From the NCBI GenBank assembly GCA_963810095.1, contig CAWEMM010000013.1, positions 96,001 through 160,000 of the forward strand: a stretch of 64,000 bases of DNA, in the 5' to 3' direction. A model generated the notes under the pieces. That model was not told the DNA's origin. It saw only the letters and a list, made by a program, of their open reading frames with translations, and ran no database searches. This DNA is from an uncultured Chloroflexia bacterium (lineage in GTDB: Bacteria; Chloroflexota; Anaerolineae; CG2-30-64-16). Every line of letters begins with the position of its first letter. Positions within the stretch are counted from its first letter, which is position 1. Both the position numbers and the translations under genes were made by a program. Of the stretch, positions 4,348 through 50,904 are shown piece after piece.

Positions 4348-6352
4348 ATGACTATCGATCTGTCGCCGGTGGACGCCGGACAAAAACGCGCCGGGCAGGG
4401 CGGGGGCGCGCCCGGGCTGTCTGCGCCGGGGACATGGCAGCGGATCTCTCTGCGCAACTTTGCCGCGCCGTTTCTTGCGGTGCTCGGCGCACAGCTGCTG
4501 CTGCAGGCCGGCGGCGCCGACGCGGGCGTGGGGTTGGGCGGTGGTGGCCGGCAGCGTCGTGCTCCTTGTGCTGCGGCTGCGCAGCGACGTGCCCGGCCGG
4601 TGGGCCGATGCGCTTCAGATCGCGCTCGCGTTCACGCTCAGCCTGCAGCTCAGCCTCAACCTCGACCAAGTTAAGCAGCGCCTGGCGCCCGGCGAGCAGA
4701 TCCTCGTCTGGGCCCTGAGCAGCAGCCTCGTGATCCTGACCGTTCTGAACTTCAGGCCGCGGCGCATCGAGCTGCATCTGCCCCCGTTTCGGCTCGATAA
4801 GTGGGACGGCCTGGCGATCGGCCTGCTGCTGTGCGCGGCGGCCCTCACCCGCATCCCGTCGCTCGACCGCATCCCCCTTGGGTTCGACCCGGACGAGGGC
4901 TCATTTGCGACTTTCGCCTGGGACGCAGCCAGCGGCGCAGCCCGCGACCCCTTCTCGACCGGCTGGGCGACCCACCCGACCCTGCAATTCTTCCTTAATG
5001 CGCCGCTGGTCGACGTGCTTGGCAGGAACGGGTGGGCCATGCGCCTGCCCTCCGCCCTGCTCGGCATCCTGGCCGTGGCCGCCATCTACCTGTTCAGCCG
5101 GGTAGGTTACGGGCGCCGGGTGGCCCTCATCGCAGGAGTTCTGGCAGTCGCATCCGACGTATTGATCCAATTCAGCCGGCTCGGCATCAACAACATATCG
5201 GATACGCTCTTTATGGCGTGGACGGTGGCTGCGCTGTGGATTGCGGGGTCGACGGGTTGGCCCGGTGCGTGGGCAGCGGCAGGGGCGGGGTTGGGGCTCT
5301 CGCAGTATTACTATTTCGGAGCGCGGGCGATCCCGTTCGTCGTCGCGGTCAACCTGCTGGTCTGGCTAATGGCTGACCGCAAGGGCGTGTTCCGGGCGTG
5401 GCCGCTGCTTTTAGGTGGGCTGCTGGTTACGCTGGTCGTGGCCGGGCCGCTGGCGGGACACATGCTCCGAACCCCCGGCAGCGTCAGCGAGCACATGTTC
5501 CTGACGGCACCGTTTTCGGCCGGAATTGCCGAGCAGGCGGCGAAGCTCGGGACGAGTCCGTTGGGCGTGTGGGCGCGCCATCTGTCCCAGAGCCTGGGCG
5601 TCTTTACGGTCGTCCCAGACCAGGGCAGCTTCTACCATCCCGAGCGGCCGCTGCTCGATGCCCTGCAGGCGCCCTTCTTCCTGCTCGGCTTGGCTGCCAT
5701 GCTGCTCGCGATCCGGCGGCCCATCCACCAAGCCGTGCTTCTCTCGCTGGGCGCGGTGCTGCTGCTCGGCTCGGTGCTGATGAACGATCCGGCCGCATTC
5801 CACCGGCTGCTCGGGATGATGCCCTTCGTGATCGTCGTCGTGGCCCTTGGCGTAGACACCGTGGCCTGGCTGGCCGTAAGCGTGCTGCAGGGGTGCGAGG
5901 ACCCGGGCCGAGCGCGCCGGGTGCGTATGGGGCTCGGGGCGACCCTGGCCGGGCTGATGGCCGTGACGACGCTCAATTTCTACTTCCGCAGCTACCCGGA
6001 CACGGTTGCCTACAAGCCGCCCAATCAGACGGCGGTTAGCATCGCCGCGCTGGAGTACGCCGCGGCGGGCGGGCAGGGCGCGTATTTCATCTGCACCTCG
6101 GATGGCGTCGATCCGGCAGGGAAGGTGTATCATACGCCCTTGGTCTACGCGGCCGGCGACAAGGTCAAGGGCTGCGTGCCCGAGTTGATCGCCCAGGCGG
6201 CCGGCAGCCGGCCCCTAACCTTCTACTTCCTGGCCGACCAGTTTGCGCTTGAGCAGTCGATCACGGCCCAGTTCCCGGGGGGAACGGCCGCCGACTATCA
6301 CCGGCCCAGCGACGGCCAGCTTATCATGACGCGTTATCGAGTGACGCAGTGA
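4348..6352 (+). pseudogene. GT-C (family 39/ArnT-like) glycosyltransferase with +1 frameshift near 4515 (possibly a sequencing error)
   Basis: N-terminus with a TM helix in ORF 4342..4674 continues into ORF 4460..6352 ('TRAWGWAVV'); 'TRIPSLD..DPDEG' DE motif; paralogue of the preceding gene. Confidence 0.75.
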
Positions 6353-6423
6353 CGTGGTAGGGTAAGGCAAGCGCTGCAAGCGCATACCTCACCCAAAAGT
6401 GCATTTATCACGGAGTTTTCCGA

Positions 6424-9400
6424 ATGACCCAACAGACAACCCAGGCGGGTGAGGCAGACGCGGGCGGCGCCATCAGCGCGGCCGAGCTGCGTGACAACTG
6501 GCGATCCGTGCGGACGTGGCTGCGCTCGGACGCTGCCCCGCGCTGGATCCTCATTGGGATCCTGATCGTAGGCGCGCTGCTCCGGCTGACGAACCTCAAC
6601 TGGGACCAGTTCACACACATCCACCCCGACGAGCGTTTCCTGACGATGGTCACGGCGGGCATGAAGCTGCCCGACAGCGTAGGCCAGTTCTTCGACAGCA
6701 CCCAATCGCCGATGAACCCCTACAACATCGGCTATGACTTCTTCGTCTACGGAACGCTCCCGCTCTTCATCGTCCGCGTCGCCGCCGAGTTTGCGCAGAA
6801 GCTCAATGAGGCGCTGCAGCTCTGGGCCACGCCCTCGGGCGTGCCCATCATCCTGACCGGGTTTGATGGCGTGCACCTGGTGGGCCGCTTCATGTCGGGG
6901 CTGTTCGACGTCGGGTGCATCTGGCTGACCTATCTCGTCGCACGGCGGCTGTACAGCGCCCGGGTCGGGCTCCTGGCCGCGGCATTGTACGCGTTCTCGG
7001 TCCTGCCGCTGCAACAAGCGCATTTCTACACGGTCGACACGTTCGGCACGTTCTTCGCCCTGCTCACCTTCTACTTCTGCGTCCGGGTTGCGCAAGGCGG
7101 AGGCTGGTGGCACTACGTCTGGATGGGCGTCGGACTGGGCGCCGCGCTGGCGTCACGGATCAACCTGGCGCCGCTCGCGGGCATCGCGCTGCTGGCCGCC
7201 GCGATTCAGGTGTGGGACGAAATCTCAGCCCAGCGCGGCCGGGCCGCATCCGGCTCGGGTGAGGACACGGGCTGGCTTGGCCTGCTGGTCCAGGCGACGC
7301 TGTTCCGACTCGCGCTGTTCGGGATTGCGGCCATCGTCGTCTTCCGCATGGCCCAGCCGTATGCGTTCGGCGGCACGTCGCTCATGACCTTCACGTTGGG
7401 CGACAAGTTCCGGGAGAGCATGCGCCAGATCCAGGCGCTGATCAGCGGCGCGGCCGACTACCCGCCCGGCCACCAGTGGACGAGCCGGACCCCGTTCGTC
7501 TTCCCGTTCGTCAATATGGTGGTGTGGGGGCTCGGCCTATTCCTCGGCCTGTTTGGCTGGCTGGGGTGGCTCGTCGCCACGTTCCAGATCCTCAAGGCGT
7601 TCACCATCAAGGGCGACAAGACCGACGCGAAACGGCACCTGCTCCCGGTCGCGTGGGTGGGGGGCATGTTCCTGTGGCAGGGGCTGCAGTTCGTCCAGTC
7701 CATGCGCTACCTGCTGCCCACGTATCCGCTGCTCGCCGTGCTGGCCGCGTGGTTGCTCTGGTTCCTCGTCGCCAAGGCGCGGGCGTACCAGGCCGCGCGG
7801 GCGGCGGCAGGAACGTCCTTCGGCGAGGGCCGCGGCGTGGCCGGTCGGATCTCGGCCGTCTGGCGGCGCATCCTGACCGTACCCGTCGCGTATGGGCTGA
7901 TGACGGTCGTGGTCATCACGACGATGCTATGGGGTTGGGGCTTCCTGGCCATCTACCGCCGGCCGCTCTCACGCATCACCGCGTCCAAGTGGCTCTACGA
8001 GAATGTGCCGCAGGGCAGTGTGCTGGCGAACGAGCATTGGGACGACCCGCTGCCGTTCAGCCTGGATGGCCACGTGGCCTACGGCGGCGGAGGGTATTTC
8101 CGCTCGCTCAAGAGCTCGGACGACGGCGTGATGCAGATGTACTGGGAGGACACGCCGGAGAAGCGCGAGGCGATGTACAAGTGGCTCGACGAGGCCGACT
8201 ACATTGTCCAATCGTCGAACCGGCTTTGGGGATCCATCCCGCGGCTCCCCATGCGTTTCCCGATGTCGAGCGAGTTCTACCGCCTGCTGCATGAGGGTAA
8301 GCTCGGCTTCGAGCTGGTGCAGGACGTGACCTCGTTCCCGACCATCTTCGGTATCCCGTTTAATGACACGGGCGCCGAGGAAGCCTTCAGCGTCTACGAC
8401 CACCCCGAGGTGCGGATCTACAAGAAGACGCCCGCCTACAGCGAGGCGTTGCTGCGAAGCTACTTCGACCAGGTTGACCTGGAAAATACGATCCAGATGT
8501 GGCCAAAGATGGCGTCATCTGCGCCGACTGCCTTGCTCATGACGGCGAAGGACTTCGCCACCCAGCAGGCGGGCGGCACATGGACGGACATTTTCGACCT
8601 GGACAGCCTCGTCAACCGGTCGCCGGTGGTCGCGGTGATTGTGTGGCTGGCGCTCCTCATCCTCCTCGGCATCGTCGCGTTCCCGATCACGTTCGTGGTG
8701 CTGCGCAAGCTGAGCGACCGGGGTTACGGCGTGGCGAAGATGCTGGGCATGCTGCTGCTGGCCTGGCTGGCCTGGTTCCTGCCCGCACTCAAGGTCACGA
8801 GTTACAGCCGCTCGTGGATCGCGCTCTGCCTGGGCTTGCTGGTCGGGCTGTCGGCCATGATTGCCTGGCGGCGGTGGGGCCTGATCCGCGAGTTTATCCG
8901 TGAACGCCGCGCCCTGCTAATCACCGAGGAAGTCATCTTCCTCGCCATGTTCGGGCTGTTCCTGCTGATCCGCATCGGCAACCCCGATCTGTGGCACCTG
9001 GCCCGCGGGGGCGAGAAGCCGATGGAGTTCGCGTACCTCAACGCGGTGATTCGCTCGACCGTGTTCCCGCCGTATGACCCGTGGCACGCGGGCGGCTTCA
9101 TGAACTACTACTACTTCGGCTGGGTCATCGTCGGTACGCTGATCAAGCTGACCGGCATCGCACCCTGGGTCGCCTATAACCTGGCGGTGCCGACGCTGTT
9201 TGCGCTGACCGGGCTGGGCGCGTTCTCCGTGGCGTACAACCTGGCCGAGGGCGACCGCGCGACCCGGCTGAGGGGCGACGACCGGGCTTCTGCCGGCATG
9301 CGCGACCGGCTCGTTGCTGGCCGGCCTGGCGGGTCTGTTCTTCGTCACGATCATCGGCAACCTGGGCAACCTGAAGCTGCTGATCGACCAGTTCAGTCAG

Positions 9401-11197
9401 CGCGGGACGATTGCGATCGAGAGCAGCATCCCGGGCTTCGCCAAGCTGGTCGCGGCGCTCAGCGGCGTGGCGAACGTGGTCACGAACAAGGCCACGCTCG
9501 ACTTCCCGAATGACTGGTGGTTCTGGAACGCGTCGCGCGTGATCCCCGACACCATCAACGAGTTCCCGTTCTTCACCTTCACCTACGCGGACCTGCACGC
9601 ACACATGATCGCGCTGCCGCTCACGCTGCTGGCGCTGGCGTCGGTGGTTTCGCTGGCCCTGCTCGTGCCGCGCCGGTCGCCGAATGGTGCGGAGCCGTCG
9701 CCCTGGGCCGTTTCGCTGCCCGAGTTGCTGACCATCGTCCTGCTCGGCTTCGTCGTCGGCAGCCTGCGCGCTACCAACACCTGGGACTTCCCTACCTACG
9801 CGCTTGCCGGGTTGGCCGGCCTGGTGGTGCTCGAAATCACCCGGCGCGGTCCCGTGCTCGCGGCGGCTCGGCCTGATGGCATCCAGGAGTGGCTCGCGTT
9901 TAGCCTGCGGACGGTCGTGTCGGTGTTCTGGCGCTTCATTATCCTGTTCGCCGTCGGGGCAGTTGCCTTCTATCCCTTCACCTCCCACTATGCCACTGCG
10001 TACGCGGGGCTGGAGCAATACAAGGAAGCCAAGACTGCCATCGGCGACTACCTGACGCATTGGGGCTTCTTCATCGCGCTGGCCGTCGTCACCCTGGTGA
10101 CGGAGTTCGCAGCACAGCGGCGCGAGGGGCGGCTGGGGCGCTGGCTGGCCGACGGGCTGCCCATCCTGGGCGGAGCGATGGTGGTGCTCATCCTTGCGGG
10201 CTGGGTGCTGGGGGTGCGAGTCTGGATTATCGCGCTGCCCATGGCGCTGGCCGCACTCGTGCTGGCGCTGGGCCGCGACCTGCCGCCTGCCCGCCGCACG
10301 GCATTGCTCTTCCTGGCGCTGGCCCTCGCGATCACCATCGGGGTCGAGGTCGTGCGCCAGAAGGACGACATCGGCCGCATGAACACGGTGTTCAAGTTCT
10401 ACCTCCAGGCCTGGACGCTGTTCGGCGTGTCGCTCGCGTTCGGACTCGCCAGCTTCGCGGGGCGGATGGAACACCGGCGGGCGGCTGCGGGCAAGCTGGC
10501 CTGGGCCGTCGTCGGGGTGCTGTTCCTGGCGACCATGCTGTATCCGCCGTTCGCCGCGCGCGCCAAGATCCGCGACCGGTTCTCCGCCGAGGCGTCGCCG
10601 CGGGGGCTCGACGGCATGGCCTACATGGATCAGGCGCAATACTTCGACAACGGCCAGGACCTGCTGCTGGCCGACGACAAGGCGGCGATGCTCTGGCTGA
10701 TGCAGAATGTGCAGGGTTCGCCGACGATCCTCGAGGCCCAGATTCCCGAGTACCGCTGGGGCAGCCGCTTCAGCGTGTACACGGGCCTGCCGACCGTCCA
10801 GGGATGGAACTGGCACCAGCGCCAGCAGCGCTCGATCGTGCCCAGCGCGGAGGTGGAGCGCCGGGTCAACAGCGTCCAGGAGATTTACAACACGACAGAC
10901 CTCGCCCGGGCGCGACAGCTGCTCGACCGCTACGGCGTGCGGTTTGTGATCGTCGGCCAGGAGGAACGGGCCTACTACAATCCGGACGGCCTGGCGAAGT
11001 TCGGTGAGTTGGAGAACCAGGGCTACTTGAAGACGGTGTACCAGGGCGGCGCGGTGACCATCTTCGAGGTGGTGGCAGCGAACCGCGGGCCGAATGAGTC
11101 GTATGCCTACTTCCTGGAACCGCGGCTCGACGTGCCGGCCGACGACGGGAACGGCGCCATCGCGCCCAAGACGTTCGAGTCGCCGGTGGCCCAGTAG
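6424..11197 (+). pseudogene. GT39-like plus DUF2298 (Chlor_Arch_YYY) fusion membrane protein with +1 frameshift near 9303 (possibly a sequencing error)
   Basis: 'NWDQFTHIHPDERF', 'GGEKPMEFAYLN' and 'NYYYFG' in ORF 6424..9513; 'INEFPFF..ADLHAH', 'NTWD' and 'RMNTVFKFY' in ORF 9314..11197; colinear with the intact paralogue 11207..15850. Confidence 0.85.
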
Positions 11198-36532: not shown

Positions 36533-38212
36533 GTGATGACAGAAGAGAGACTGCAAAAGCTGCTGGCACGTGCGGGCGTAGGGTCGCGGCGCGCCTGCGA
36601 GGAACTGATCCTGGCGGGCCGCGTCACGGTCGACGGCCGGGTGGTGACAGAGCTGGGGACGCGGGTCGACCCCGACCGGACACAGGTGCAGGTGGACGGC
36701 AAGCCGATCCGGCTGGAAGGCCTGCGCTACGTGATGCTGCACAAGCCGCAGGGCGTATTGTCAGGTACTGACCCAAAGGCTGAGTATCCATCCTGGGAGA
36801 CGCTGGTCAAGGTGCCTGAGCGCCTGTATGCAGTTGGCCGGCTCGACCAGGACAGTGAGGGCCTGCTCCTGCTGACCAACGACGGTGAGATGGCCCTGCG
36901 CTTGTCGCATCCCAGGTACGAGCATCCCAAGACGTATTTCGTCCAGGTCGAGGGCGTGCCGAACCCGCGGAAGCTGCGCCGGCTGCAGCACGGCGTGATG
37001 CTGGACGACGGGCCGACCTTGCCCGCGCGGGTCGCTCTCTTCCGCGAGTTGCCGGCCGAGTACGCTGGCAAGCCCGCGCCGCGACCCGATGCTGCGAAAG
37101 CCAAGGGGAACATGGAGCGGCCGCCCGCCCGGCCCGCGGCGCCACCCGAGCGGCGCACGAGCTGGCTGAAGATCACGCTGCGCGAAGGACGCAAGCGGCA
37201 GGTGCGCCGGATGGTGAGCTTGCTCGGGCACCCCGCGTTGCGCGTCATTCGCGTGGGTCTTGGCCCGCTCGCCCTGGCCGACCTAAAGCCCGGGAAGTGG
37301 CGCGACCTGACTGCGGGCGAGGTGCGTGCGCTGCGTGAGGCCGCTTTCCACGGCGAGCCAGAATCCCAGGGTGCAGCGGCGCCGCAAGCCGCTCCTGCAC
37401 CATCCGCCGCCCGCGAAAGGAAACGCAGGCCATTGTCCCCCAACACGATCGCCATCGACGGCCCCTCCGCCTCGGGAAAGAGCACCATCGGCGGGCTGCT
37501 GGCCGAAGACCTGAATTATCTCTATTTCGACACGGGCGTGATGTACCGGGCGGTCGCAGCAGTGGCTCTGGCGCGCAATGTCTCACCCCACGACGAAGAC
37601 GCAGTCACTGCGATGGCCGAGGCGCTGCGGATCGACGTGCAGCCGCCGACCATCGACGACGGCCGCGATGTGACGGTGGTGGCCGACGGGCGAGATGTCA
37701 GCTGGGACATTCGGCGCATGGAGGTGGAGAAGGCGGTGACGCCCATCTCCTCGTATGCGGGCGTGCGCGAGGCGATGCGCAAGGAGCAACGCCGGATCGG
37801 CGAAGCGGGCAAAGTCGTCATGGTGGGCCGGGATATTGGCACGGTCGTTCTGCCCGATGCCGACCTGAAGATCTACCTGGATGCGACCCTCCACGAACGC
37901 GCACGGCGCCGCTATTTGGAGCGGCAGGAGCGCGGGGAGAAAGTGACGTTCGAGCAGGTGCTTGCGGACGTCGAACGCCGGGACCGGGGCGATTCGTCGC
38001 GACAGCACGCGCCGTTGAAGGCTGCGGACGACGCGATCCTGGTGGAAACAACCGGGCTAGACATCGACCAGGTCATGGAGCGGGTCGGCATCCTGCTCGA
38101 GCATTGGCGCCATGAGCGCACGAAGCGCGCGAACCAACAGGCGGCCCGGGCCGGGAAAGCGCCCGGCCGGCGCACGGCTGGCCAGTCTGTCTCGCGCCGC
38201 GGCCATTCCTGA
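36533..38212 (+). CDS. cmk: Pseudouridine synthase (RluB/RsuA family) fused to cytidylate kinase
   Basis: S4 'RLQKLLARAG', 'GRLD' and 'EGRKRQVRRM'; then 'IAIDGPSASGKST', 'DTGVMYR', 'GRDIGTVV'. Confidence 0.92.
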   Translation: MMTEERLQKLLARAGVGSRRACEELILAGRVTVDGRVVTELGTRVDPDRTQVQVDGKPIRLEGLRYVMLHKPQGVLSGTDPKAEYPSWETLVKVPERLYAVGRLDQDSEGLLLLTNDGEMALRLSHPRYEHPKTYFVQVEGVPNPRKLRRLQHGVMLDDGPTLPARVALFRELPAEYAGKPAPRPDAAKAKGNMERPPARPAAPPERRTSWLKITLREGRKRQVRRMVSLLGHPALRVIRVGLGPLALADLKPGKWRDLTAGEVRALREAAFHGEPESQGAAAPQAAPAPSAARERKRRPLSPNTIAIDGPSASGKSTIGGLLAEDLNYLYFDTGVMYRAVAAVALARNVSPHDEDAVTAMAEALRIDVQPPTIDDGRDVTVVADGRDVSWDIRRMEVEKAVTPISSYAGVREAMRKEQRRIGEAGKVVMVGRDIGTVVLPDADLKIYLDATLHERARRRYLERQERGEKVTFEQVLADVERRDRGDSSRQHAPLKAADDAILVETTGLDIDQVMERVGILLEHWRHERTKRANQQAARAGKAPGRRTAGQSVSRRGHS

Positions 38213-44385: not shown

Positions 44386-44515
44386 GGTGTCGCTCCGTGA
44401 GGTTAGCATCTATCTGTAAAAGCTCTGGCCGATTTCCGACGGCCGCGAGGCCCCGCCAACGAGTGTACTCCATTCTACCACCAGAATGGTGGCTCGCCTC
44501 AACCAATAAATGCTA

Positions 44516-44545
44516 TTGACTATTGGGGATAAGTTCGGCTACAAT
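44516..44545 (+). promoter_or_regulatory. Sigma70 promoter of the clostripain-CHAT operon
   Basis: TTGACT-N18-TACAAT; GGAGG RBS downstream. Confidence 0.65.
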
Positions 44546-44577
44546 AACGTGGTGTGGCAACCCGAATGGAGGAAGAG

Positions 44578-45870
44578 ATGAGCGCGCCCAAATCTCGCTC
44601 TTGGACGATCATGGTCTACATGGCCGGCGACAACGGCAAGGTGTTCCATACGACTGCCGGTCCAATCCGGCTGATGGCCGAAATGACCAGCGCGGGCTAC
44701 AAGGATATCTGGAAGATGGGCCAGGTGGGTTCGACCCCCGCGGCCGCAGTGACGTGCCTGTTTGACACGCTGCACGGTTCCTACCTGGTGGAGGTGCGCA
44801 AGGGCAACGGCATGGCCAACAGCGTGGTCCAGGCGCTGCCTGCGGTTAACATGGGCGACCCTGAGAACCTGCGCGATTTCATCATCCGTTCGATGACGAG
44901 CTATCCTGCCGAGCGCTATGCGCTGGTGTTGTGGAACCACGGGCTCGGCTGGCTCGACGTGGACATCTACGCGCATGTCAGGCACGAGCCGGGGATGACC
45001 CCGAAGAGCGCTTCCGGTCATGCCCCAGTGTTCCGCTCGACGCCCGCCCGCATGAGCGGCGGCGAGCAGACGCGACCGATCGCGTTCGACGACACGAGCA
45101 AGGACTTCCTGGACACCGAAGGGCTGCGCCGGGCGCTCTCCGAGGCGGCGACTGCAACCGGCCACCGTCTCGACCTCATCGGCATGGACGCCTGCCTGAT
45201 GGCGATGATCGAAGGCGCCCGCGAGCTCCAGCCCTTTGCCGATTATTTCGTCGCCTCACAGGAAGTGGAACCGATGGACGGCTGGCCCTATGCAGCCATC
45301 CTCAAGGCGATCAATGCGCGGCCGCTCATGGCGCCCGCGGAGTTGGCGCAGGTGGTTGTGGACGAGTACGCCGCGGGTTATAATGGCAAGACACGCGCGG
45401 CTGAGGAAGACCCGGTTACCCAGTCGGCCATCGTGACGGCCAACACCGAGGTGACCGAACAGCTGGCGCGCGAGGTGGTCGACGCGTTGATGTACGATCC
45501 GGCCCCGGCCCTCCGGACGATGGCGCAAAGGGCAGTCGACCGCACGTTGACCTTCCAGGACCGCAACTACAAGGACCTGGGCTGCTTTGCGGCCGCGCTG
45601 GCGGTCGAAGCGGCGCAGGTAACGCACCGCAGCGGGCCGCGCATCAAGGCGGCTGCGGAGGCGTTGGCGAGCCACCTTGCCTCACGAGGCGAGGGCGCGC
45701 CCGTGCTGCGGCTGGGCTTTCTGCCCACTTATCAGGGGGCCACCGGCCTATCCGTCTTCCTGCCCCGGATGCTGAGCATGGGACGGCGGGAAGAGACGAT
45801 GCGGGTGTATCGGAAGCTGGTCTTCCCACAGCGGACGGGCTGGGACCGGCTGGTGGAGTGGCTCCTCTAA
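44578..45870 (+). CDS. Clostripain-related cysteine peptidase (C11), no signal peptide
   Basis: 'WTIMVYMAGDN', 'NMGDP', catalytic His 'LWNHGLGW', catalytic Cys 'GMDACLM', 'ASQEVEP', 'GLSVFLP'. Confidence 0.92.
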   Translation: MSAPKSRSWTIMVYMAGDNGKVFHTTAGPIRLMAEMTSAGYKDIWKMGQVGSTPAAAVTCLFDTLHGSYLVEVRKGNGMANSVVQALPAVNMGDPENLRDFIIRSMTSYPAERYALVLWNHGLGWLDVDIYAHVRHEPGMTPKSASGHAPVFRSTPARMSGGEQTRPIAFDDTSKDFLDTEGLRRALSEAATATGHRLDLIGMDACLMAMIEGARELQPFADYFVASQEVEPMDGWPYAAILKAINARPLMAPAELAQVVVDEYAAGYNGKTRAAEEDPVTQSAIVTANTEVTEQLAREVVDALMYDPAPALRTMAQRAVDRTLTFQDRNYKDLGCFAAALAVEAAQVTHRSGPRIKAAAEALASHLASRGEGAPVLRLGFLPTYQGATGLSVFLPRMLSMGRREETMRVYRKLVFPQRTGWDRLVEWLL

Positions 45871-45888
45871 CAGGAACCGGGAGGCTGT

Positions 45889-48126
45889 ATGCCCTTTCGA
45901 CGTGATCTCGCCGCTGCCACGCTCACTAATGTCGCGGCAGCGCTCCATGCGAACTGGGCGCAGCTGCCGCAGACCGGGCAGGACCAGGTCAAGCGCCTGA
46001 TCGACCAATACGGTCACGAGATTTTCCAGAAGAATGCGGCCAATCGCGCCGTAAGTATGGTGCGGCTGCTGGACGAAGTCGCGGTGGTTCCCGGCCTGCC
46101 GCCGTCTGTGACGGCCGCGTTAGCCGCAGGGAACGGCGAAACGACCTCAGGGTTCGTCCGCATCTCCGACGAGCAGCGCGATCAGGTATTGGACGCGTTG
46201 GTGCAGGTGTACGACGCCCGGCGGTACGACGAGCCGTACGAGCTGGCCGAACAGGTGCGCGGCCAGCTGCAGGCTGCGGCGGGGCAGTTAGATGCGAAGA
46301 CGCGGCTACGTTGGCACGAACTGGACCTGGTGTACCAGGCCGGCGGGAACCCCGCCGATTATCTGGACGTGCTCACGGCCGTCCTGGGCGACCAGGCGCC
46401 GGCAGTGCGGGATATGATCAATGCGGGCAAGAGTTGGGGCGCCGTTCCCAAGTTGAGCGCAGCCAAACCGCCGCCGGCGGGCGGTGCGAAGGGCCTGGAG
46501 ACGGGTGGGGATTTTGCGCTCGCCGGCCCATCCACGGGAGGCGGCCGCGGCCTCGACGAGCCATCGCCCACGCCCGTGCAGCCGGGCCCCGTCCAGGTGC
46601 AGCGCTCGGCCAACGTCTACTTCCCCAAGACCGTGCAACTCAGCCAGAAGATGATCCCGTTGATCGTCCACATCGCCCGGGAGCAAGCCGAGCAAACCGT
46701 AAAAATCCAGCAGGGGTCAAGCGGGCTGTCGCTGACCGTGGGCGATATGAAGATCTTCGTGCTGACCGCCGACTTCACCGTCGAGCGCGCGATCGGCGGG
46801 CGCGAGATCGAGGACGTGGAGTACGGGCGTATCGTGCGGGTGAGCCCGGAGGCCGACTCGGAGCCTCTTGTCTTCTTCCTCTCGCCCACCTCCGCAGGCG
46901 AGAAGCGCATCAGCATCGAATTCAAGCAGTCAGGCAAGCGCATCGGGTCCCTGGCGTTCGACGTTGCCGTGATCGAAGAGGCTGTGCCCGCGACCCGACT
47001 GGCCGGCGTCATGGACGGTCAGCCGCCGTTCCTCGTCTCTGCGGCCGGAACGACCGGCGCGGCTCCTATCGCCGTGCCCGACCTTGACCTGCGCGTGCTT
47101 GTGGAAGGCAAGACGCTGAGCTACGTCCTGAGCTCGGCCGACGGCAAGTACGACGAGAAGAAGCTCGGCTCGAAGGTGCTCCTGATCGACCCCGCGCCGT
47201 TCTTTGCGAACATCACGCAGCAGCTGAGCGACCTGGCCGCCCGGAGGCCCGAGTATCGCACCGGCGACGACAAGGCTCTCCCGGGCCAGTTGGGCGCCCA
47301 GCTTTGGGATCAACTGGCTTCCGACGAGTTGCGCGGGGTCTACAAGGACGACCTGCGGGTGAACTACTCTGGGAAGAGCCTCAAAATTACCACCGACGAG
47401 CCGTGGATTCCGTGGGAGATGCTGCGGCCGGTGGAGCTCGAGAACGGGGCCTTCGTCGTCGACGATTCGCCCCTCTGCGAGACGTTCCGCCTCACCCGCT
47501 GGCTGGACGGCCGGGGCGCGCCCGAGCGTGTGCAGGTGAAGGCGGGAGTCATCGTGGCGCCCCCCGAGGACACGCTGCCCTCCGTCCTAGAGGAACTGGC
47601 CTACTTCAAAGCCTTGCCCTGGTTTGCCGCACTTCGTACCAAGGATGAGGTCAACCGGGCGCTGAGTGCCGGCGCGGGAGACCTCTTCCACTTCTCGTGT
47701 CACGGTGGGGTGGATCCAAACGATGCCTGGCTCAAGCTTGGCGACGACTATCTAAAGGCAAGCAGCATCTTGTACGGCCGGGACGTGAATCTCTCGATGG
47801 CGTTCATTTTCCTCAACGCCTGCGAGGCAGGGCAGGCCAACCTGACCATCACCGGGCTGGGCGGCTGGGCACAGGCTTTCCTCCGCCGCTATGCGAGCGT
47901 CTTCATCGGGTCGCTCTGGTCGATCAACGATGCGCTGGCCTCGCGCTTCGCGCGCGCCTTCTACGATGCGCTGCTGGGGCTGAACGGGCAGGAGGCTCAG
48001 ACGGTCGGCGTGGCGTTTCAGGCCGCCCGGCAGGCGATCAAGGCGCTGGACCCCGACAATCCCACATGGCTGGCGTACGTCCTCTACGGCGACCCCAACG
48101 GCCGGGTGGTCGTGGAGACGAAATAG
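45889..48126 (+). CDS. CHAT-domain (caspase-like) protease with uncharacterised N-terminal domains
   Basis: 'IPWEML', 'FHFSCHG', 'FLNACEAG', 'GSLWSIND', 'AYVLYGDP'; GGGAGG RBS. Confidence 0.92.
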   Translation: MPFRRDLAAATLTNVAAALHANWAQLPQTGQDQVKRLIDQYGHEIFQKNAANRAVSMVRLLDEVAVVPGLPPSVTAALAAGNGETTSGFVRISDEQRDQVLDALVQVYDARRYDEPYELAEQVRGQLQAAAGQLDAKTRLRWHELDLVYQAGGNPADYLDVLTAVLGDQAPAVRDMINAGKSWGAVPKLSAAKPPPAGGAKGLETGGDFALAGPSTGGGRGLDEPSPTPVQPGPVQVQRSANVYFPKTVQLSQKMIPLIVHIAREQAEQTVKIQQGSSGLSLTVGDMKIFVLTADFTVERAIGGREIEDVEYGRIVRVSPEADSEPLVFFLSPTSAGEKRISIEFKQSGKRIGSLAFDVAVIEEAVPATRLAGVMDGQPPFLVSAAGTTGAAPIAVPDLDLRVLVEGKTLSYVLSSADGKYDEKKLGSKVLLIDPAPFFANITQQLSDLAARRPEYRTGDDKALPGQLGAQLWDQLASDELRGVYKDDLRVNYSGKSLKITTDEPWIPWEMLRPVELENGAFVVDDSPLCETFRLTRWLDGRGAPERVQVKAGVIVAPPEDTLPSVLEELAYFKALPWFAALRTKDEVNRALSAGAGDLFHFSCHGGVDPNDAWLKLGDDYLKASSILYGRDVNLSMAFIFLNACEAGQANLTITGLGGWAQAFLRRYASVFIGSLWSINDALASRFARAFYDALLGLNGQEAQTVGVAFQAARQAIKALDPDNPTWLAYVLYGDPNGRVVVETK

Positions 48127-48134
48127 GGGCGTTC

Positions 48135-48224
48135 ACCACTAAGGCACAAAGACACAAAGGCGCGGAGGCGGCGAGTGTGAGAAGCGGCTCTTCGTGAATC
48201 TTGGCGTCTTCGTGTCTTGGTGGT
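48135..48224. repeat. Palindromic repeat (ACCACTAAG...CTTGGTGGT), 9-nt periodic
   Basis: accactaag-gcacaaag-acacaaag ... cttcgtgt-cttggtggt. Confidence 0.8.
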
Positions 48225-48273
48225 AAGGGGTTGCCTTCGCTCCCCGGCCAATTCTCCGGTATAATACCGCCCC

Positions 48274-50904
48274 ATGACCACACCTATGCGCAGCCAGTAC
48301 CTGGCGCTCAAGAAACAGTATCCCGACATCATCCTGCTCTTCCGCCTCGGCGATTTCTACGAGACCTTCGACGACGACGCCAAGATCGTTTCCAGCGTGT
48401 GTGATGTCGTCCTCACGTCGCGGCCGGTGGGCAACGACGAGCGCGTGCCCTTGGCGGGGGTGCCCTACCACGCCGTCGACAACTACATCGCCAAGCTCAT
48501 TGGTGCCGGTTATCGTGTAGCCATCGCAGAGCAGATCGGGACGGAGCCGCCGAAGGGTGAGAAGATCGTCCCCCGGGTCGTGCGGCGGGTGGTCACCGCG
48601 GGCACGCTGGTCGAGCCGGCACTGCTGCCCGAGAAGCGTAACAACTACGTGGCGGCGCTGGTGCTGGCGCCCAACCCGGCGGCGCCCGCTGCTGCGGGGG
48701 TGGCGTTTGCCGACATCAGCACCGGCGAGTTCGCGGTCTGCGAGCTTGCGGATGGTGGCGACGTGCTGCGGCAGGCGGCCGAAGAGTTGAGCCGCTTGAG
48801 CCCGGCCGAGGTGCTGCATCCGGCCAAGGACCCGCGTTGGGCCAAGCGCACGTCAGACGGGCAGGGCAGCCCACCGGGCGACGCCATCCCGGCCTTCCTG
48901 GATGCCTACCATGTCACGCCCTACGCGGCCTGGCGCTTCGAGGAGAGCACCGGGCGGGCGGCACTCCTCGAGCACTTTCGGGCAGCTACACTGGACGGGT
49001 TCGGCTGCGAGGGGAAGCCGCTGGCGGTGCGGGCAGCAGGCGCGCTGCTGCAGTACCTGCAGGAGACGCAGAAGGAGGGCCTGCCCCAGCTTGCCGGCCT
49101 GCGCACCTACACCCTCGGCGAGTTCATGACGCTGGACGAGGCCACCCGGCGCAACCTGGAGCTGACCGAGACAATCCGGGGCGGCTCGGCGCAGGGGTCG
49201 CTGCTCGGCGTGCTTGACGCTACGCTGACCCCAATGGGTGGGCGCCTGCTGCGGCGCTGGCTGGGGCAGCCCCTGCTGGACGCCGCGGCACTCGAAAGGC
49301 GGCTGGACGGGGTCGAATCCTGGCACGCGGATGCCATCCGCCGTGCCGAGCTGCGCGAGCTGCTGCGCGGGTTGGGCGACCTGGAGCGGTGGACGAACCG
49401 CTGCGTGCAGGGCATTGCGCTGCCCCGTGACCTGGTCGGCATCCGGGAGGCGCTGGGACGGGTAGAGCGCGTGGGCGGCCTCCTCGATGCGGAGACTGAC
49501 CCGCTCGACGCCTGCCCGACCCTCGCTCGCCTCCTCTCTGAAGCCATCGGCGACGATCCACCCGCCACGCTGTCGACGTCTGGCGTGATCCGGCCAGGTT
49601 TTTCCGCCGAGCTGGACGGCATTCACCTCGCGACGCGCGACGCGAAAAGCTGGATCGCCAACCTCGAATCCGTCGAGCGCGCACGGACCGGCATTAGGTC
49701 GCTCAAGGTGGGGTACAACCGGGTCTTTGGCTATTATATCGAGGTGACGCAGGCCAATTCTGCGCTGGTCCCGGCGGACTACATCCGTAAGCAAACCCTC
49801 GTCAATGCCGAGCGCTACATCACGCCCGATCTCAAGGAGTACGAGGCGCTGGTGTTGAACGCCGAGGAGAGGGTGCTCGAGCTGGAGGGTCAGCTCTACC
49901 GCGACGTGTTGGCTCAAGTTGCAGCCGGGGCCAGCCAGCTCCTGCACACGGCGGGCCGGCTCGCCGAACTCGACGTACACTCCAGCCTTGCCGAGGTCGC
50001 CGAGGCTAACAAGTACGTGCGCCCGACCCTGGCCGAGGACGGGGCCATAGACATCCGCGGGGGGCGGCACCCGGTGGTGGAGCGGATGCTGGCGGACGGC
50101 GCGTCCTTCACGCCAAACGACGCGCATCTGTCGCCCGAGCAGGCGATCGTCGTGCTCACCGGGCCGAACATGGCCGGCAAGTCGACGTGGATTCGCCAGG
50201 TGGCGATGATCGTGCTGATGGCGCAAATTGGGTCGTTCGTCCCGGCCGACTCCGCGCGGATCGGGCTCGTGGATCGCATCTTCACCCGCATCGGCGCGTC
50301 GGATGAGATCGCGCGCGGCCAATCCACATTCATGGTGGAGATGGTGGAAACCGCCAATATCCTCCACCACGCTACCAGCCAGTCCCTGCTGATCCTGGAC
50401 GAGATCGGCCGGGGCACGAGCACGTACGACGGGCTTGCGATCGCGTGGGCGGTCGTCGAGTACATCCACAACCACCCGGGCCTGCGCGCCAAGACGCTTT
50501 TCGCCACGCACTACCACGAGTTGACCGACCTGGCCGAGCGGCTGCCCCACGTGGTGAACTTCAACGTGGCCGTGGCCGAGCAGGGGGATACGGTGGCCTT
50601 CCTGCACAAGATCGTTCCCGGCGCGGCCGATCGTTCCTACGGGGTCCACGTGGCCCAACTGGCGGGGATGCCGCGGCCGGTGGTCACCCGCGCACAGGAG
50701 ATCCTGGCCGACCTGGAGGCATCCGGCGCGGCGGGCCCGCGGCGTTCCACGCTGGGCCAGCCGGTGCTCTTCCAACTCCCGCTCTTCTCGTCCGAGGACC
50801 CGGTCATCGCGGAACTGAAGGTGCTCGACGTCAATGCGCTGAGCCCGCTCGCCGCGCTGAACAAGCTCTACGAGCTGCAGCAGCGGGCCAAGAAGGGGGA
50901 GTAA
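48274..50904 (+). CDS. mutS: DNA mismatch repair protein MutS
   Basis: 'TPMRSQY', 'GDFYETF', 'GPNMAGKST', 'DEIGRGTST', 'ATHYHE'; TATAAT at 48260-48265. Confidence 0.98.
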   Translation: MTTPMRSQYLALKKQYPDIILLFRLGDFYETFDDDAKIVSSVCDVVLTSRPVGNDERVPLAGVPYHAVDNYIAKLIGAGYRVAIAEQIGTEPPKGEKIVPRVVRRVVTAGTLVEPALLPEKRNNYVAALVLAPNPAAPAAAGVAFADISTGEFAVCELADGGDVLRQAAEELSRLSPAEVLHPAKDPRWAKRTSDGQGSPPGDAIPAFLDAYHVTPYAAWRFEESTGRAALLEHFRAATLDGFGCEGKPLAVRAAGALLQYLQETQKEGLPQLAGLRTYTLGEFMTLDEATRRNLELTETIRGGSAQGSLLGVLDATLTPMGGRLLRRWLGQPLLDAAALERRLDGVESWHADAIRRAELRELLRGLGDLERWTNRCVQGIALPRDLVGIREALGRVERVGGLLDAETDPLDACPTLARLLSEAIGDDPPATLSTSGVIRPGFSAELDGIHLATRDAKSWIANLESVERARTGIRSLKVGYNRVFGYYIEVTQANSALVPADYIRKQTLVNAERYITPDLKEYEALVLNAEERVLELEGQLYRDVLAQVAAGASQLLHTAGRLAELDVHSSLAEVAEANKYVRPTLAEDGAIDIRGGRHPVVERMLADGASFTPNDAHLSPEQAIVVLTGPNMAGKSTWIRQVAMIVLMAQIGSFVPADSARIGLVDRIFTRIGASDEIARGQSTFMVEMVETANILHHATSQSLLILDEIGRGTSTYDGLAIAWAVVEYIHNHPGLRAKTLFATHYHELTDLAERLPHVVNFNVAVAEQGDTVAFLHKIVPGAADRSYGVHVAQLAGMPRPVVTRAQEILADLEASGAAGPRRSTLGQPVLFQLPLFSSEDPVIAELKVLDVNALSPLAALNKLYELQQRAKKGE

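Follow-up and report, generated by a model that had tools for sequence, protein, structure and literature searches.

The window analysed here, a stretch of 64,000 nucleotides (nt) from an uncultured Chloroflexia bacterium (contig CAWEMM010000013.1 of assembly GCA_963810095.1), carries two adjacent genes for clan-CD cysteine proteases on its forward strand. The first encodes a C11 (clostripain-family) protease of 430 amino acids (aa; 44578–45870) and the second a 745-aa protein that contains a CHAT protease domain (45889–48126). Both genes precede a canonical mutS (48274–50904, forward strand), which contains domains I–V by Pfam and has the best MutS_V match in the genome. Comparative sequence analysis indicated that the locus is an ancient, vertically inherited C11–CHAT–mutS arrangement of the Anaerolineae (Chloroflexota), and it suggests a partnership of proteases that has not been described before, as opposed to a mobile defence island. 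The best explanation, held with moderate confidence, is an operon of this class in which a facultatively coupled C11/CHAT pair is transcribed together with mutS. A first-pass annotation of the window had described a two-gene clan-CD protease module; this module is not a free-standing conflict operon, and the conserved mutS linkage had been missed.

To evaluate the linkage to mutS, 80 loci were taken from public species genomes whose titles give Anaerolineae, Anaerolineales, Caldilineales or similar names; this set overlaps the sample of relatives described below. In 62 of the 80 loci, a mutS gene was located downstream of the CHAT relative in the same orientation. The intervening gap was at most 60 nt in 31 of these loci and 90–340 nt in 19, while 11 contained an inserted gene; in L062 and L064, the CHAT stop and the mutS start overlapped by 4 nt. 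The inserted genes were SMP-30/gluconolactonase-like, PIN-like or subtilisin-like as judged by reading their translations, with no family search made, and no consistent partner was seen among them. Among the other neighbours from the window, Tex recurred in 8 of the 80 loci and the rest in 0–2. No property of either protease gene is conserved as strongly as its adjacency to mutS. The pairwise distances between MutS sequences were correlated with those between CHAT cores (r 0.867 over 45 sequences), with none of 999 permutations giving a value as high, and the CHAT core diverges approximately 1.65 times faster than MutS. Vertical inheritance is suggested because the mutS linkage is kept across order-level distances and because the MutS and CHAT distances correlate. 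Genes of the conflict type do not usually hold a fixed site over such distances, as these do before mutS amid otherwise changing neighbours, and this raises the question of whether the link to mutS is functional or mere transcriptional hitch-hiking.

The gap between CHAT and mutS in the window is 147 nt, compared to 27 nt in the closest relatives. This difference is accounted for by the insertion of a palindromic dispersed repeat of approximately 90 nt (48135–48224, forward strand; hairpin −65.6 kcal/mol, z −4.0), which has 37 matches in the genome and is missing at this position in the closest relatives. A TATAAT sequence occurs at 48259–48264, 9 nt before the mutS ATG, and could be a candidate promoter of a nearly leaderless mutS transcript that was gained with the repeat insertion.

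Conservation of the protease pair was examined by scanning 61 related genomes for CHAT orthologues, and 30 loci were fetched. Strong full-length CHAT orthologues were present in most of the family to which the window belongs. A word-based homologue search with the CHAT protein returned only 4 hits. Of the 30 loci, 24 carried the C11 gene immediately before the CHAT orthologue and in the same orientation, and two of the remaining six stop at a contig edge. Of the 80 public loci, 39 had a C11 gene upstream of the CHAT relative. The pair that the first-pass annotation had singled out is therefore a recurrent one. The two proteins were also found as fusions. In the related genome G017, C11 and CHAT form a single open reading frame (ORF) of 1186 aa, and a second C11–CHAT fusion of 1211 aa (P0019) is 42% identical to it with a different junction. 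Among the 88 longer C11 relatives returned by the fusion search, four were fused to CHAT and six to a C14 caspase. The C11 part was N-terminal in all six fused proteins that were domain-scanned, and likewise in P0019. Given this conservation and the occurrence of fusions, C11 and CHAT are likely to be functionally coupled in some way. One fused form, P0056, is labelled in its source record as Ardenticatena maritima, a named species. This species has been cultured, so experiments on the fused form may be feasible.

Further combinations of these domains could be observed elsewhere. A separate fused clade with the order C11, M17_N-like and CHAT was found in other Anaerolineae families, as frames of 1062–1543 aa (L159, L160, L161 and L162, from genomes G231, G272, G365 and G339, respectively) with no mutS within 1.5 kb. 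The genome that contains the window (G000, 6.1 Mb) holds, on another contig, a second clan-CD cluster on one strand at 5532–8980 of locus L044 (G000:C9:545000-560000). It consists of a CHAT gene (5532–6674), a C14 caspase-like ORF within 5972–7420 and a C11 gene (7613–8980). At 4609–9617 of locus L045 (G000:C12:292000-304000), the gene for a 910-aa C11 protein is directly followed by that for a 670-aa protein with an FGE-sulfatase (FGS) domain at its end, a domain type described as common in conflict systems of multicellular bacteria (PMC7159879). In total, the genome has 10 CHAT-domain matches above the Pfam cut-off and three C11 loci, a large clan-CD repertoire for its size.

The C11 protein was identified by its Pfam profile, its structure matches and the N-termini of its orthologues. 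The Peptidase_C11 profile (PF03415) matched at 2.8e-39 with 136.1 bits against a cut-off of 25.8 bits, and comparison with the PDB revealed sequence matches to PmC11 and to a C11 zymogen structure. The longest ORF opens at GTG 44554; the ATG at 44578 sits behind GGAGGA, and the N-terminal pattern of the orthologues (M-x5-9-[RK]RPWT-MVYMAGDNG) places the true start at this ATG and not at the GTG. The motifs WNHG and MDAC were present, with His121 (44938–44940), Asp204 and, two residues after it, Cys206 (45193–45195) invariant in 16 of 16 orthologues. According to the account of PmC11, an Asp of the S1 pocket before the Cys gives clostripain-type enzymes their preference for Arg or Lys, and activation requires cuts in the loop between His and Cys, at Lys147 in PmC11 and at Arg181/Arg190 in clostripain. 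By homology with these two enzymes, the C11 protease should prefer Arg or Lys at P1. Its His–Cys loop is variable and longer than that of PmC11, yet Arg135, Arg153 and Arg166 within it are invariant in the same 16 orthologues. The protein should accordingly resemble its homologues in needing a cut in this loop, where the three Arg residues stand, for activity.

The 745-aa protein was delimited by its ORF, Pfam matches and an AlphaFold model built on 19 orthologues, with a mean predicted local distance difference test (pLDDT) score of 76.7. The model supported the layout proposed in the first-pass annotation, in which a helical N-domain of approximately 185 residues is followed by a Gly/Pro linker, a beta-rich domain and CHAT. 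Residues 1–185 (45889–46443) form an all-helical N-domain with two sub-domains. Residues 186–234 (46444–46590) form a disordered linker (pLDDT below 50) with 11 Gly and 10 Pro in 49 residues, which contains the motifs AKGLE and GRGLD. A beta-sandwich (residues 236–362; 46594–46974) opens with R[YF]ANV[YH]FP and gave a weak DUF7363 match (E 0.0064, below the cut-off) together with cohesin/Ig-like fold rows. A second disordered stretch (residues 365–394) precedes the protease domain (residues 399–735; 47083–48093). The CHAT profile (PF12770) matched this domain at 2.3e-13 with 50.7 bits against a cut-off of 24 bits. Its best Foldseek match was Csx29/TPR-CHAT (8eex_B, E 9.4e-14), followed by separase, gingipain, DdvA and SAVED-CHAT. 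The motifs CHG and NAC were present, and His605 (47701–47703) and Cys645 (47821–47823) were invariant in 19 of 19 orthologues. Judging from the intact His/Cys dyads, whose retention had been claimed from the window alone and was confirmed across both orthologue sets, the two proteases are probably both catalytically competent. Neither N-terminus contained a signal peptide, and no membrane segment could be detected in either protein using Kyte–Doolittle hydropathy over 19-residue windows, where the highest values were 1.08 and 1.25. Both proteins are therefore judged from sequence to be cytoplasmic, and the earlier statement that they lack signal peptides stood.

Structure prediction of the N-domain gave a confident helical fold (pLDDT about 90 within the whole-protein model and 95 when folded alone) but no convincing structural relative. 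The best Foldseek match had an E value of 0.6. The best Z values were 6.8 in the VIA wide search, within the background for helical bundles, and 5.0 in the VIA second look, also background for such bundles. A likeness to the four-helix bundle of bacteriocin-immunity proteins was set aside, being confined to residues 114–185 at the background Z of 6.8. Comparison with Pfam showed no family match at E ≤ 5 and no TPR match. Against the EAD1-8/bDLD adaptors, the Atlas feature score was 0.87 compared to the mark of 0.9, and the death-effector-domain row had a Z of 4.6; an EAD or Death-like adaptor can be regarded as a lead only. The N-domain profile matched 46 cluster representatives among 1.84 billion at E ≤ 1e-3, and nearly all of these belonged to the same protein family, apart from fragments and one fusion. 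A eukaryotic prosaposin match spanned the 35-residue LP...YGPxI motif, and its E value of 6e-26 was the sum over approximately 12 near-identical repeats of about 10 bits each; a saposin-like N-domain was rejected. A common adaptor in C11 and the CHAT N-domain was not supported by hhalign (probability 0.2%). In CHAT relatives of 800–830 aa (L073, L074, L109 and similar), the first approximately 105 residues of the N-domain were tandemly duplicated.

A promoter-like sequence, TTGACT-18-TACAAT, precedes the C11 gene on the forward strand, with the −35 hexamer at 44516–44521 and the −10 hexamer at 44540–44545. The consensus scan gave a match at 10 of 12 positions, and two such sites were found in 7.6 kb compared to 0.8 expected. 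Together with an AATAAAT element (44505–44511), the promoter could be aligned upstream of C11 in four relatives (G007, G004, G002 and G003), in agreement with the promoter first annotated at 44516. It is probably of the sigma-70 type, consensus-like and constitutive. An inverted repeat upstream of the −35 hexamer (CCATTCT-N6-AGAATGG) was dropped from consideration, as it is not conserved. The gap between C11 and CHAT is 18 nt and holds a ribosome-binding site, GGGAGG, six bases before the CHAT ATG. The scan of the locus revealed no terminator-like site before 51565, which lies beyond mutS and Uma2, and because of this the operon probably comprises more than two genes and extends into mutS. The tight spacing noted in the first-pass annotation was correct, and the two protease genes form the front of the C11–CHAT–mutS arrangement; their co-transcription with mutS is highly probable.

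Under the favoured explanation of a coupled pair in a mutS operon, one conserved sigma-70-type promoter would drive C11, CHAT and, in most genomes almost without a gap, mutS. The C11 zymogen would activate itself, and active C11 would then process the CHAT protein or cooperate with it, the obvious targets being the two disordered linkers of that protein. Regulation of the module would be post-translational, with constitutive expression together with mutS. The module may be related to the caspase-like effectors of multicellular bacteria and have become domesticated; an ancestry in conflict systems is suggested by relatives that combine this CHAT clade with TCAD9 (Gemmatales) or with pentapeptide repeats (Nostoc). 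Transcription of mutS through the module would be at least one reason for its staying beside that gene.

Several observations weigh against this explanation. Four genomes of the same genus (G002, G003, G005 and G006) have C11 directly before mutS with no CHAT orthologue, and three complete Caldilineaceae chromosomes keep CHAT–mutS without any C11-family gene. A phylum sample contained 28 further C11 loci that lacked both this CHAT clade and mutS within 1.5 kb, and mutS does not adjoin the fused genes of the Ardenticatena type. The length and sequence of the linker varied among 20 orthologues, in which AKGLE and GRGLD were not conserved. The [RK]GL activation sites of the first-pass annotation consequently had to be given up. 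One invariant Arg (R239, in R[YF]ANV[YH]FP) lies at the border of the linker and the beta domain, where it starts the first beta-strand; relatives from cyanobacteria and archaea that lack C11 have this residue, and many C11-linked relatives have another in its place. R239 was rejected as a C11 cleavage site, as its presence does not follow that of C11. Because some related genomes have kept only one of the two proteases, be it C11 or CHAT, C11 cannot be an obligate activator of the CHAT protein. The coupling appears facultative, with each protease surviving alone in some lineages, and the sequence comparison indicates that CHAT processing is not the only purpose of C11. A complex prediction of C11 with CHAT residues 1–365 gave a score of 0.00 and is no evidence either way.

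Among Caldilineaceae relatives that lack C11, an Arg-Gly pair was observed 4–5 residues before the first sandwich strand in 14 of 17 sequences (L085, L088, L094–L097, L103, L106, L118, L119, L121–L123 and L125). This pair may be a conserved processing site, one that cannot be that of C11.

The strongest of the alternatives, although unlikely, is that of two independent proteases, each captured or retained in the mutS transcription unit without any cascade, the gene order persisting only since the movement of either gene would part mutS from its promoter. The occurrence of each gene alone beside mutS and the lack of conserved linker sites are consistent with this arrangement, and the very short or overlapping gaps suggest a mutS without its own promoter. 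However, C11 is fused to CHAT or C14 in at least 10 of the 88 longer relatives, some of them away from mutS, which is hard to explain for uncoupled enzymes. The second CHAT–C14–C11 cluster in the same genome also argues against independence.

An anti-phage or abortive-infection module must be considered improbable. Here a trigger would free C11, and a cascade through CHAT would kill or arrest the infected cell, by analogy with SAVED-CHAT/PCaspase minus the nucleotide sensor. A cascade of two clan-CD proteases is already an established defence design (Steens et al.), and caspase-like effectors are described as enriched in multicellular bacteria (PMC7159879). The faster divergence of the CHAT core, the patchy loss of the module within one genus and the occurrence of CHAT-clade relatives in conflict-type architectures (a Gemmatales relative with TCAD9 and a Nostoc relative with pentapeptide repeats) can be read in the same direction. 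However, PADLOC-DB 2.0 returned no system; C11 matched none of its families and CHAT gave only weak domain-level matches, among them one of 19.7 bits to SAVED_CHAT that covered CHAT residues 586–731 only. Scans of the locus with Pfam, NCBIfam and PADLOC detected no TPR, gasdermin, CRISPR or cas genes, no sensor domain and no defence neighbours, the surrounding genes being beta-lactamase-fold, hydrolase, glmS, mutS, Uma2 and Tex genes. These results agree with the first-pass annotation, which had named no TPR sensor, gasdermin or CRISPR partner and had recognised no known system. Furthermore, the locus is stable and vertically inherited beside a housekeeping gene over order-level distances, unlike typical defence islands, and its promoter is consensus-like and probably constitutive.

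A functional tie to MutS appears less probable again. The proteases would control the abundance or activity of MutS, or would turn a lesion or mismatch sensed by MutS into proteolysis and death of the damaged filament cell. In comparative genomics, genes that remain neighbours across such distances generally prove to have a functional interaction, and the adjacency of CHAT (or C11) to mutS outlasts all other neighbours, down to overlapping reading frames, while MutS and the CHAT core co-diverge. However, a genome of the same family (G024) has mutS without either protease, mutS does not adjoin the C11–CHAT fusions found in another clade, no protease domain suggests binding of DNA or MutS, and passive sharing of a promoter explains the linkage equally well. 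Its most specific form, in which DNA damage or a foreign heteroduplex detected by MutS would trigger a C11-to-CHAT cascade that removes the affected cell from the filament in filamentous Chloroflexota, is the least probable proposal considered here, though if true it would give bacteria an equivalent of mismatch-repair-dependent apoptosis.

Apart from the protease locus, the window contains a 559-aa ORF at 36533–38212 in which an S4 domain, a pseudouridine synthase (RluB-like) and a complete cytidylate kinase are joined, an apparent gene fusion.

A full-text literature search did not find a C11–CHAT pair or a protease–mutS operon, though supplements (for example those of PMC7159879 and PMC8195603) could list such pairs. 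Among described enzymes, PmC11 and clostripain (MEROPS C11) share with the C11 protein the Pfam and PDB matches, the dyad, the Asp two residues before the Cys and the His–Cys loop. Unlike them, it is predicted to be cytoplasmic without a signal peptide, has a longer, variable loop and has a second clan-CD protease as its neighbour or fusion partner. Fragipain-type C11 enzymes are described as activating pro-toxins in Bacteroides (PMC8406203), and they offer a parallel in that a C11 protease is dedicated to the processing of a different protein. However, these enzymes work on toxins and are located in the periplasm or secreted.

The conflict systems described by Kaur et al. 2020 (PMC7159879), in which paired peptidases and proteolytic thresholding are proposed for NTP-dependent systems, occur in the same phyla and have caspase-like peptidase effectors, and the TCAD9 domain of the CHAT-clade relative is a further likeness. 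The module in the window has no MoxR, vWA, STAND or GTPase component, and the terms 'C11' and 'MutS' are absent from the main text of that paper. Craspase TPR-CHAT (Csx29, type III-E CRISPR) has the closest CHAT structure (8eex_B) and the same His/Cys dyad; however, there is no TPR arm and no gRAMP/Cas7-11 here, and the NCBIfam Csx29 profile gave 19.6 bits against a cut-off of 300. In the type III-B CRISPR-CBASS of Haliangium ochraceum, SAVED-CHAT is reported to cleave and activate PCaspase (Steens et al.). That system and the one in the window both co-encode two clan-CD cysteine proteases, one of them CHAT, and the CHAT fold matches 8tl0. One protease activates the other there, while the C11-first order here is only inferred. 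The present locus also differs in having no SAVED sensor, cyclic-nucleotide source or CRISPR, in having C11 rather than a C14-type partner and in being tied to mutS. SAVED-CHAT/PCaspase is nevertheless the nearest described design. To our knowledge, every two-protease caspase-like cascade demonstrated in bacteria to date lies downstream of a nucleotide sensor. A sensor-less partnership of C11 with CHAT (or C14), occurring both as neighbours and as fusions, would thus provide a defined enzyme pair for tests of zymogen activation.

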